Shown here piece after piece: positions 1 through 3,000 of a stretch of DNA of 64,000 bases; position 1 is the stretch's first letter; each line of letters begins with the position of its first letter. The position numbers are program-made. The stretch comes from Escherichia coli (GTDB taxonomy: Bacteria; Pseudomonadota; Gammaproteobacteria; Enterobacterales; Enterobacteriaceae), in assembly GCF_017348835.2 (NCBI RefSeq), contig NZ_CP071375.1. One strand, 5' to 3'.

Positions 1-3000
1 AAGGTGTACGTCAGTTGCCTGCTGAGAGATGTCCTGCGATTGAACGAGCAACAAAAGGTGGTGTCCTGTGTGAAGAACTTCGTCCTGATGTTGATTGGAC
101 ATACTTACGACGCTCGTCATGTTATTCGCAGAATATGTCGATGAAGCAACCAAATGACGAAAACGATCATACCCGAAGCATCAAGAGGCAAATGATTCAT
201 GAAAATCAAACATGAGCACATCCGCATGGCGATGAATGCCTGGGCATATCCTGATGGTGAGAAAGTTCCGGCAGCTGGAATAACCCAGGCTTATTTTGAG
301 TTGGGTATGACGTTCCCAGAACTGTATGACGACAGCCATCCGGAAGCCCTGGCTCGCAATACCCAGAAAATTTTCCGCTGGGTAGAGAAAGACACCCCTG
401 ATGCAGTTGAAAAAATTCAGGCGTTGTTACCAGCGATCGAAAAGGCAATGCCACCTTTGCTGGTGGCCAGAATGCGCAGCCACAGTTCAGCTTATTTTCG
501 GGAGCTGGTGGAGACGCGGGAGCGACTGGTGAGAGACGCTGATGATTTTGTCGCAGTGGCAATCGCCGGTTTCAATCAGATGAACCGTGGTGGCCCGGCA
601 GGAAATGCTGTGGCAGTGCATTGAGTGATAATAGCCATATCGAATCGCTTCCGGCAACTCGTGAGTAAAAAGATTCGGTATCAGAAGAGGTGAGTATGGC
701 TAACGCCTGGCTCAGATTATGGCATGACATGCCAAATGACCCTAAGTGGCGAACAATTGCCAGGGTGTCAGGGCAGCCAATTGCAACAGTGATGGCAGTG
801 TATATCCACCTCCTGGTGAGCGCGTCACGAAATGTCACGCGAGGTCACATTGATGTCACGACAGAAGATTTGGCAAGTGCGCTCGACGTGACAGAAGAGG
901 TAATTGATTCAATTTTGCAGACGATGCAGGGGCGGGTACTTGATGGTGATTTAATCACTGGATGGGAAAAACGCCAGGTGCTTAAAGAGGACAACGGCAA
1001 TATTTCGCAAACCGCAAAATCTCCTGCAGAGCGCAAGAGGGCGCAGCGAGAGAGGGAAAGAAAGCGGGAACAAAATGGCGATTGTCACGGCGCGTCACGA
1101 AATGTCACGCACATGTCACGACGAGTCACGACAGATAAAGATACAGATAAAGATACAGATCAAGAAGATCAAAACACTATGGTCCATGGCGTAAAAAACG
1201 CCACGAACCAGGCAGGGGATGTTCAGACCGTCAACCCTGGTCAGCCAGCAGGCACGACACCGGAAGCCGATTCAGCGTATGCGCTGAAAGCCGATTCGGG
1301 CGCTGTGCAGCAGGTGATGACCGCAAGGCCGGAGCAATCACACCAACTGCAGCAGCCCGAAGCCGATTCCGCCATTCAGCGGGAAGCCGATCGGGTAGTC
1401 CCGGAAAACACCGGGCAGTCTGTGGGACGAGTGGATTATCCGGATGTGTTCGAACAGGTCTGGCGGGAATACCCGTTGCGTGCTGGGGCAAACCCGAAGA
1501 AATCCGCTTTCAGTGCCTGGAAGGCCAGATTACGCGAGGGGGTGCCACCAGAGGCCATACTGGATGGTGTGAGGCGTTACGCAAGATACCTGGCGGCTAC
1601 CGGGAAAACGGGAACGGAATTTGTTCAGCGAGCGACGACGTTTTTTGGGCCGGACCGGAATTTTGAAAACCCCTGGTTGCTCCCGGTAAGCGGCACGAAC
1701 AACCAGCGTTGTGTGAATCATATTTCTGAACCGGATACCGAAATTCCGCCGGGATTCAGGGGGGGATGTGGCATGAAAAACATTGCGGCAGCCGGGGTTC
1801 TTGAACGTATTCGCAGACTTGCACCACAGGCGTCGGTTCCACCGTACCGGACGGTGGAGGAGTGGCGGGAATGGCAACTTGTTGAAGGACGAAAACGCAG
1901 CGAGGAGATTAACCGCCAGAATCACCAGTTGCGGGTGGAAAAAATCCTGAATCGTTCGGGCATCCAGCCTCTGCACAGCAAATGCTCGTTTGCGAATTAT
2001 CAGGTGCAGAACGACGGGCAAAAATACGCGCTGAGCCAGGCCAAATCCATAGCTGACGAACTGATGACCGGGTGCACGAATTTTGTGTTCAGCGGTAAAA
2101 CCGGCACCGGGAAAAATCACCTTGCAGCGGCGATGGGTAACCGGCTGATGGCGAAGGGGCGCAGCGTGATTATTGTCACCGTGTCTGATGTCATGAGCGT
2201 GTTGCATGACAGCTACGACAACGGCAAATCCGGGGAAAAATTTTTACAGGAGCTTTGCAGTGTTGATTTGCTGGTCCTGGATGAAATAGGCGTTCAGCGG
2301 GAGACGAAAAACGAGCAGGTGGTATTACACCAGATAATTGATCGCCGGACAGCATCACTGTGCAGTGTCGGGATGTTAACAAACCTGAATCATGCCGCAA
2401 TGAGTACACTTCTTGGTGAGAGGATTATGGACCGCATGACCATGAACGGTGGTCGATGGGTGACGTTTAACTGGGATAGCTGGCGTCCAAATGTCAGCAA
2501 TATGAGGGTTGTGAAGTAATTTTGTCCGGAGGAAATTTTAATGGAAACCGTATCTGACGCACTGAAAGCACTGAAAAAAGCCTCTTCACATGTGGTGGCA
2601 GCTCGCCTTGGAATCAGTCGTGAAGAGGCTGTCAACGAGCTGTGGGAACTCAAAAGAAATGGCGTCGTTGATAAAACTGGTCACACCTGGTTTCTGGCTG
2701 GCGAAGGTGAATCCCGGGTAACCGAAGAGCGGCCAGTAAAATCTGAAGCACAGGATATGCTGACCGGGGAGGTCGAACAAAAAGTTACCGCAGACATGAT
2801 GATTGAGTTTATCGGTCAGGATGGGGCTAAAACGTGTGAGGAACTGGCGGGTAAGTTCGGTGTCAGTACTCGCAAGGTTGCTTCCACGCTGGCGGTGGTA
2901 ACCGCAACGGGGCGGCTGGCACGCGTTAATCAGAACGGTAAATTTCGTTACTGCATGCCGGGCGATAATTTACCAGCAGAGCCGAAAGCCGCGCTGGTAA

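Follow-up and report, generated by a model that had tools for sequence, protein, structure and literature searches.

Fused initiator and loader genes in a prophage of Escherichia coli

The window analysed here is a 64,000-nucleotide stretch of Escherichia coli DNA (RefSeq assembly GCF_017348835.2, contig NZ_CP071375.1), at the beginning of which lies the replication module of a prophage. This module is the YdaS/YdaT, initiator, DnaC-like, DUF1627 early operon of Rac-like, lambdoid and Stx prophages, and in the window its replication initiator and its DnaC-like helicase loader share one reading frame. In all probability the fusion is the product of a real T-to-G stop-loss substitution, a decay lesion of an ordinary kind in a prophage that was defective already. 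The following features are found at the locus.

696-1763, plus strand: coding part of the replication initiator ("phage replisome organizer"), 356 codons, ending ...SEPDTEIPPGFRG
824-892, plus strand: first cluster of GTCACG iteron-like repeats, inside the initiator gene
1083-1165, plus strand: second iteron array, five copies of TGTCACGACA with a 10-bp period followed by 2.9 copies of ACAGATAAAGAT; presumed origin
1758-1768, plus strand: Shine-Dalgarno (SD) site of the loader gene, in which the ancestral stop codon is embedded (AGGGGGUGAUG; AGGGGGUGAU)
1759-1765, plus strand: G7 run, derived from G5-T-G by substitution
1764-1766, plus strand: former stop codon (TGA in relatives), changed to GGA in the window by the causal substitution T1764G
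1767-1772, plus strand: TGTGGC, once the 6-nt intergenic spacer and now translated as Cys-Gly
1773-2519, plus strand: DnaC/YdaV-like AAA+ helicase loader, 248 amino acids, complete and with its own ATG

From ATG 696 to the stop codon at 2517-2519, the open frame encodes 607 amino acids. The initial annotation of this DNA had described the same single open reading frame (ORF) at 696-2519, and the frame is real, but its length of 608 residues had counted the stop codon. An upstream alternative start, GTG 690, is also open and extends the frame to 609 amino acids. ATG 1773 is in frame with ATG 696 ((1773-696)/3 = 359), and both this DnaC-like start and the G7 run are present as previously described.

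Both halves of the frame were compared with protein families. Initiator residues 1-356 matched the phrog_3729 profile "replication initiation protein" over positions 1-356 of 356 (E = 1.9e-257), and the initiator is 99% identical to P0001, a 356-residue cluster representative. A Pfam scan of the initiator alone gave sub-threshold matches only, PF09681 (Phage_rep_org_N) being aligned over positions 1-118 of 121 at E = 0.13 and 12.8 bits (cut-off 23.3). Relatives encode the initiator as a separate protein of 356 amino acids in a 1071-bp coding sequence (CDS) that ends ...PPGFRG-stop; in the window it is not free-standing, its stop codon being replaced by GGA.

Residues 360-607 of the fusion matched NCBIfam NF009043 over positions 1-248 of 248 with 507.7 bits (cut-off 389), which bears out the earlier description of a full-length DnaC homologue. 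The loader part also matched Pfam IstB_IS21 (E = 1.9e-18) and DnaA-ATPase, is 80% identical to YdaV of K-12, and in translation retains an intact Walker A (GKTGTGKNH) and Walker B (DLLVLDEIG). Against the host DnaC equivalog NF005931 it scored 297.7 bits, under the cut-off of 357. By these profile scores the loader is a member of a phage subfamily paralogous to host DnaC, and loading of the DnaB helicase is its predicted role. RefSeq annotates the loader as a separate CDS in identical DNA, with a start that corresponds to window position 1773. Because both parts are full-length family members, the fused frame is not a chance ORF.

The initiator had also been described as iteron-containing, and nine copies of GTCACG were found within 824-1130 (44 copies are present in the whole window, both strands included). 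The array with the 10-bp period spans 1083-1133 and the A+T-rich 12-mer repeat spans 1131-1165; together they form the presumed origin, and the role of the repeats as iterons is predicted.

A stop-loss substitution at the junction

The junction was aligned to those of E. coli E2863 and Shigella phage POCJ13. In the E. coli relatives it reads TTC AGG GGG TGA TGTGGC ATG (GGGGGTGATGTGGCATG) and has the same length as in the window; in POCJ13 the stop codon TAA is followed by the spacer TCAGCC and then by ATG, with the same in-frame 6-nt spacing. Hence a homologous stop codon is found in near-identical relatives, a single substitution removes it, and the downstream gene lies in frame. Because the junctions of the relatives are equal in length and carry T at 1764, the lesion is, on this alignment, a stop-loss substitution from TGA to GGA and no insertion. 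By the same comparison G7 is derived and not ancestral, the homopolymer being a consequence of the mutation and not its cause. Loss of the stop codon merges the two genes because the loader starts 6 nt past it and in frame, and this relation follows from the position of the stop inside the loader SD site, which fixes the spacing. The GGA and the spacer codons now provide a Gly-Cys-Gly linker between initiator and loader. Both alleles are covered by the junction 31-mer CCGGGATTCAGGGGG[G/T]GATGTGGCATGAAA.

Distribution of the junction alleles

A census of the alleles was made by exact matching of junction k-mers in 5,426 complete E. coli genomes, the T and G7 alleles being represented by 61-mers and the G6 allele, which would place the stop over the loader ATG as ATGA, by a 60-mer. 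The T allele was present in 522 genomes and the G7 allele in four (PE164, SMN013SH2, War and OkiPb01679); the G6 allele was present in none of the 5,426. Among IMG/VR contigs, T was found in 45 of 46 and G in the remaining one (2700989509), and a 27-mer of the G6 allele had no match in that database. Four contigs encode the exact 607-residue protein, among them GCA_910593615.1 and a draft contig of 4.1 kb that recurs in four samples, and 367 contigs encode the free 248-residue loader of identical sequence. In the RefSeq annotation of G-allele genomes the initiator has pseudogene status ("missing C-terminus"), and the loader is listed as a normal CDS.

Searches at the protein level were directed at the fused architecture. 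An exhaustive phmmer search of 1.84 billion representatives yielded none that matches both halves among the best 150, and in a word-indexed search of 5.8 billion proteins the 120 best matches each cover at most 62% of the query. The only match that spans the junction, P0249, is a garbled fragment of 198 amino acids. The isolated phages POCJ13, 75/02 Stx and phiSTEC1589 carry separate initiator and loader genes. As judged from these sequence collections, the fused architecture is no conserved natural design. Literature on ydaU/ydaV and on prophage fusions by stop-codon loss contained nothing specific to this module.

Recurrence of the T-to-G change

Carriers of the G allele were compared with their closest T-allele siblings. 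SMN013SH2 and SMN197SH3 differ at one position in 6,500 bp, which is the T-to-G change at the stop; War differs from E2865 by the T-to-G change at the stop and an 11-bp insertion; and the window differs from 95_0274, which has the identical integration site, at four positions in 6,000 bp including T1764G, with no insertion or deletion. The three G-allele haplotypes are mutually distinct at flanking single-nucleotide polymorphisms (SNPs). A fourth sub-haplotype (L055/L030) has four synonymous and no non-synonymous SNPs relative to the window inside the fused frame. By these alignments the G allele is present on three or four haplotypes, three of which have a near-identical T-allele sibling. This suggests either several origins of the T-to-G change or its transfer by gene conversion, in tracts that the flanking SNPs limit to less than about 220-500 bp.

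Inheritance of the allele is seen within lineages. The prophage lineage of the window adjoins potC and includes PE164, L055, L056 and L030, and SMN013SH2 (USA) and OkiPb01679 (Japan) carry the G allele in the same degraded prophage at tRNA-Ser/mtfA. Because the allele is common by descent to independently sequenced isolates, it is no read error. Identity of the window with PE164 was considered and rejected: there is one mismatch in the first 4.6 kb, identity is 99.8% over 30000-50000, and the window lacks the tape-measure IS3.

Dislocation (transient misalignment) mutagenesis acts at the end of a homopolymer, where the next template-directed base takes the place of the base found there (PMC3105016). 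The junction resembles K65R of human immunodeficiency virus type 1 subtype C (PMC3105016) in that a homopolymer-end base is replaced by the following base, although the polymerase and the system differ. The ancestral G5-T-G would be a classic substrate for such an event, and this would explain the recurrence on several haplotypes. A generic "G5-T" hotspot was rejected, as 987 genomes yielded no exact, full-length T-to-G variant of the Rac-type junction G5-T-A-A; if the effect is real, it therefore depends on G5-T-G as its context. The few events available suggest that a dislocation hotspot in this context best explains the recurrence.

State of the carrier prophages

Two further lesions in the window were informative about the condition of the prophage.

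20775-23521, plus strand: portal gene split into two ORFs, corresponding to positions 1-451 and 526-859 of the 859 of phrog_2271
3833-4168, plus strand: early gene, phrog_1372, with a T3-to-T2 frameshift near 4110

In PE164 and the T-allele sibling 95_0274 alike, the portal gene is flagged as a frameshifted pseudogene, and the frameshift near 4110 is common to the window, PE164 and 95_0274. Because the T-allele sibling is flagged for both, the two lesions are most likely older than the stop loss. In the SMN/Oki prophage and in its T-allele sibling, integrase and ydaS are both truncated, and a deleted immunity region is also among the types of damage in carrier prophages. In War, the 11-bp insertion AAGGGGCTTCA (L005, near 5090) lies in the initiator gene, whose N-terminal domain is different, and shifts the frame about 930 bp upstream of the stop site, so that no full fusion is possible in this strain. 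The carriers of the G allele are thus prophages that were already damaged or decaying.

Other differences between these prophages were also observed. The two portal ORFs of the window overlap by 4 nt, and a 162-bp tandem repeat (4.3 copies) occupies 22352-23052. PE164 has an IS3-family insertion in the tape-measure gene (L057 38240-39548; window 27418) and a second near DUF1391, both of which are missing from the window. The DUF6645 ORF of the window (10176-12026, 616 amino acids) is intact, and its PE164 counterpart is flagged as frameshifted.

Translation of the locus and weighing of the explanations

The calculated anti-SD duplex energy at the loader start was -16.8 kcal/mol for the T allele and -12.8 kcal/mol for G7. 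The neighbouring starts ATG 199, ATG 696 and ATG 2541 gave weaker energies than either allele, -7.1 to -11.7 kcal/mol, the site of ATG 696 (AGAGGUGA) having the value of -11.7 kcal/mol. Because a strong SD site is kept, free loader is probably still made by internal initiation at ATG 1773. The events at the locus may then be described as follows. A genuine and heritable T-to-G change at 1764 turned the TGA of a lambdoid/Rac-like prophage initiator gene into GGA, and the loss of this stop merged the genes into one frame for initiator, Gly-Cys-Gly and DnaC-like loader, 607 amino acids in all. Ribosomes that start at ATG 696 would make the fusion only, and no initiator with the native free ...PPGFRG C-terminus would be produced. 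Because the carrier prophages are already defective, the stop loss is most likely a neutral or tolerated step of prophage decay.

The initial annotation was correct in that two normally separate genes are joined by a lesion in a G-rich tract, but the mechanisms that it proposed, namely a +1 G slip, a homopolymer sequencing error or a slippage-prone switch, did not hold. It had regarded an ATGA overlap as the classical ydaU/ydaV-like arrangement, from which a slip in a G6 tract would have fused the coupled pair or would act as a phase switch, and had suggested a comparison of G6 with G7 in homologous prophages. Deletion of one G from the G7 run does give ...TTC AGG GGG GAT GTG GCA TGA, which reads FRGDVA-stop over the ATG, and a -1 slip in G7 could in principle restore two genes, the initiator being three residues longer. 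However, in the comparison the relatives are neither uniformly G7 nor G6 but have G5-T-G and two separate genes; they are equal in length to the window, with a T instead of one G fewer. Moreover, the Rac ydaU/ydaV pair and POCJ13 use a stop followed by 6 nt and ATG, G6 was absent from the complete genomes and from IMG/VR, and the tract is constant in length, every G-allele carrier having G7, although so few G7 carriers are known that the power to detect G6 revertants is low. The alignments refute a slip as the origin of the fusion, and the model of a slip or a switch is barely credible. It is also highly improbable that the fusion is a sequencing or assembly artefact in which T was miscalled as G in the specific context of the run. 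Apart from the window, no fewer than eight independent records have the exact fused protein or allele (PE164, GCA_910593615.1, GCA_032490275.1 in four samples, IMG/VR 2700989509, SMN013SH2, OkiPb01679, a 30-kb Logan/NCBI contig and War), strains of one lineage from different countries have G as inheritance predicts, and 522 other assemblies read T in the identical context. G-rich contexts are error-prone on several sequencing platforms, War is a singleton, and RefSeq flags other frameshifts nearby in PE164; these frameshifts, however, are common to the T-allele sibling and hence are real too.

An adaptive fusion would mean that a single-chain initiator-loader, or the loss of free initiator with the loader kept, was selected, and that the same stop loss was fixed repeatedly. 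Such a protein might tether the loader to the origin or, as a dominant-negative inhibitor, might keep a related phage, whether resident or incoming, from runaway replication. The identical nucleotide change on three to four haplotypes, a fused frame that is intact in lineages 1 and 2 with synonymous differences only within lineage 1, and the intact ATPase motifs and SD site of the loader are consistent with selection; yet very few genomes have the allele (4 of the roughly 544 in which the junction is present), the frameshifted initiator of War precludes a full fusion, the carriers are already defective, the 150 best of 1.84 billion representatives all lack the fused architecture, and the four synonymous differences might have been brought in from standing variation. 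On balance an adaptive fusion is unlikely. The more elaborate proposal that the hotspot repeatedly yields a retained and beneficial single-chain fusion, which is revertible through the -1 slip of G7 to FRGDVA-stop over the ATG, is very unlikely; if it were true, the fusion could silence origin firing of a domesticated prophage or interfere with related superinfecting phages, and the -1 slip would be an evolvable on/off route. Several points also weigh against stop loss as a decay lesion. Its neutral or tolerated status is something that we infer from sequence, and the allele persists in the lineage of the window in two sub-haplotypes with synonymous differences only, which fits a functional fusion too. 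These four differences, all of them synonymous, do not allow purifying selection on the fused frame to be deduced, since they may represent standing variation that was acquired by recombination. The hotspot is deduced from three to four events, and the recurrence could instead be due to short-patch gene conversion between co-resident prophages. For the singleton War, a context-specific systematic sequencing error is conceivable.

The significance of a stop-loss lesion at this site is mostly practical, in that a striking "fusion through a homopolymer" becomes a plain stop loss once relatives are aligned, and no long-standing question is opened by the fusion. For specialists, the recurrent T-to-G change may point to G5-T-G, with its stop codon inside an SD site, as a hotspot of the dislocation type, and the chaining of two unrelated families into one cluster by fused ORFs is a database artefact worth knowing.

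Relation to known replication modules

The window shares with the early-right operons of Rac (ydaU-ydaV) and of lambdoid and Stx phages (e.g., POCJ13 gp16/gp17) the order of a YdaT-family gene, initiator, DnaC-like loader and DUF1627. Common to the window, Rac and POCJ13 are an initiator tail ...IPPGFRG, an SD site over the stop, a 6-nt in-frame spacer and the start ATG-AAA-AAC; the ydaU/ydaV junction of K-12 reads GGG TAA CTGACC ATG. The genes are parted by a stop codon, TGA or TAA, in Rac and POCJ13, whereas the window has GGA instead. The initiator bodies differ as well, that of the window being phrog_3729 and that of YdaU having the DUF1376 fold, with only the last ~19 residues aligned.

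A similar joint is present in the host dnaT-dnaC genes, where DnaT ends ...SEPDSQIPPGFRG-stop directly before a dnaC that starts MKN, and the last 24 residues of the window initiator match the DnaT C-terminus (NF002770, positions 156-179 of 179; E = 0.0015). The host spacer, however, is 2 nt (TAA CG ATG) and the run is G3 instead of G5; because of this spacer, stop loss at dnaT-dnaC would not fuse the genes in frame. DnaT is also a primosome protein, whereas the protein of the window is a predicted iteron-binding initiator. As in lambda O/P, iterons phased at ~10 bp and an A+T-rich repeat lie within the initiator gene and a helicase-loading partner lies directly downstream; unlike in lambda, the loader is a DnaC-type AAA+ ATPase and not lambda P, and the initiator is no lambda O homologue by Pfam. 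In its extended ORF, which annotation pipelines call a pseudogene, the locus is like other stop-loss pseudogenes of prophages.

Otherwise unrelated proteins with a common DnaT-type tail before a DnaC-type MKN gene were observed at window 1695-1775, L058 2930-2990 and L059 1176-1250 (minus strand), the tails compared being ...SEPDTEIPPGFRG of the window initiator, ...SLPDSAIPPGFRG of Rac YdaU and ...SEPDSQIPPGFRG of host DnaT. The tail, the SD site and the start of the loader resemble a single conserved joint, which might be a boundary of recombination or a peptide for loader docking. In addition, homology of window 1450-1763 to phages Tritos, Evi, vB_EcoS-640R1 and others (96-97%) ends exactly at the initiator stop, and this codon is therefore a mosaic boundary. 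In phage Tritos (L060 1501-1814), the 356-residue initiator ends FRG-TAA and is followed by a different small gene, with no DnaC-like loader.

Other observations

Rare fused ORFs link the 356-residue initiators with the 248-residue loaders, so that at 90% identity both fall into a single cluster of 5,786 members, among them P0001, P0121, P0122 and P0123. This is an artefact of clustering, and the loader family is masked by the sole representative of the cluster. In the diverged homologue P0249 (198 residues), a DnaT-like tail, ...VSTPDNFVPAGFRG, continues directly into a DnaC-like N-terminus that lacks Met; its end is garbled, and P0249 may represent either a sequencing error or a further lesion of the junction.

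The prophage carries two tRNA genes, at window 8752-8827 and 8928-9004, downstream of the antiterminator gene. ARAGORN assigned them to tRNA-Met (CAT) and tRNA-Arg (TCT), whereas RefSeq calls the first of them tRNA-Ile in PE164; the gene at 8752-8827 may encode an Ile2-type CAT tRNA.

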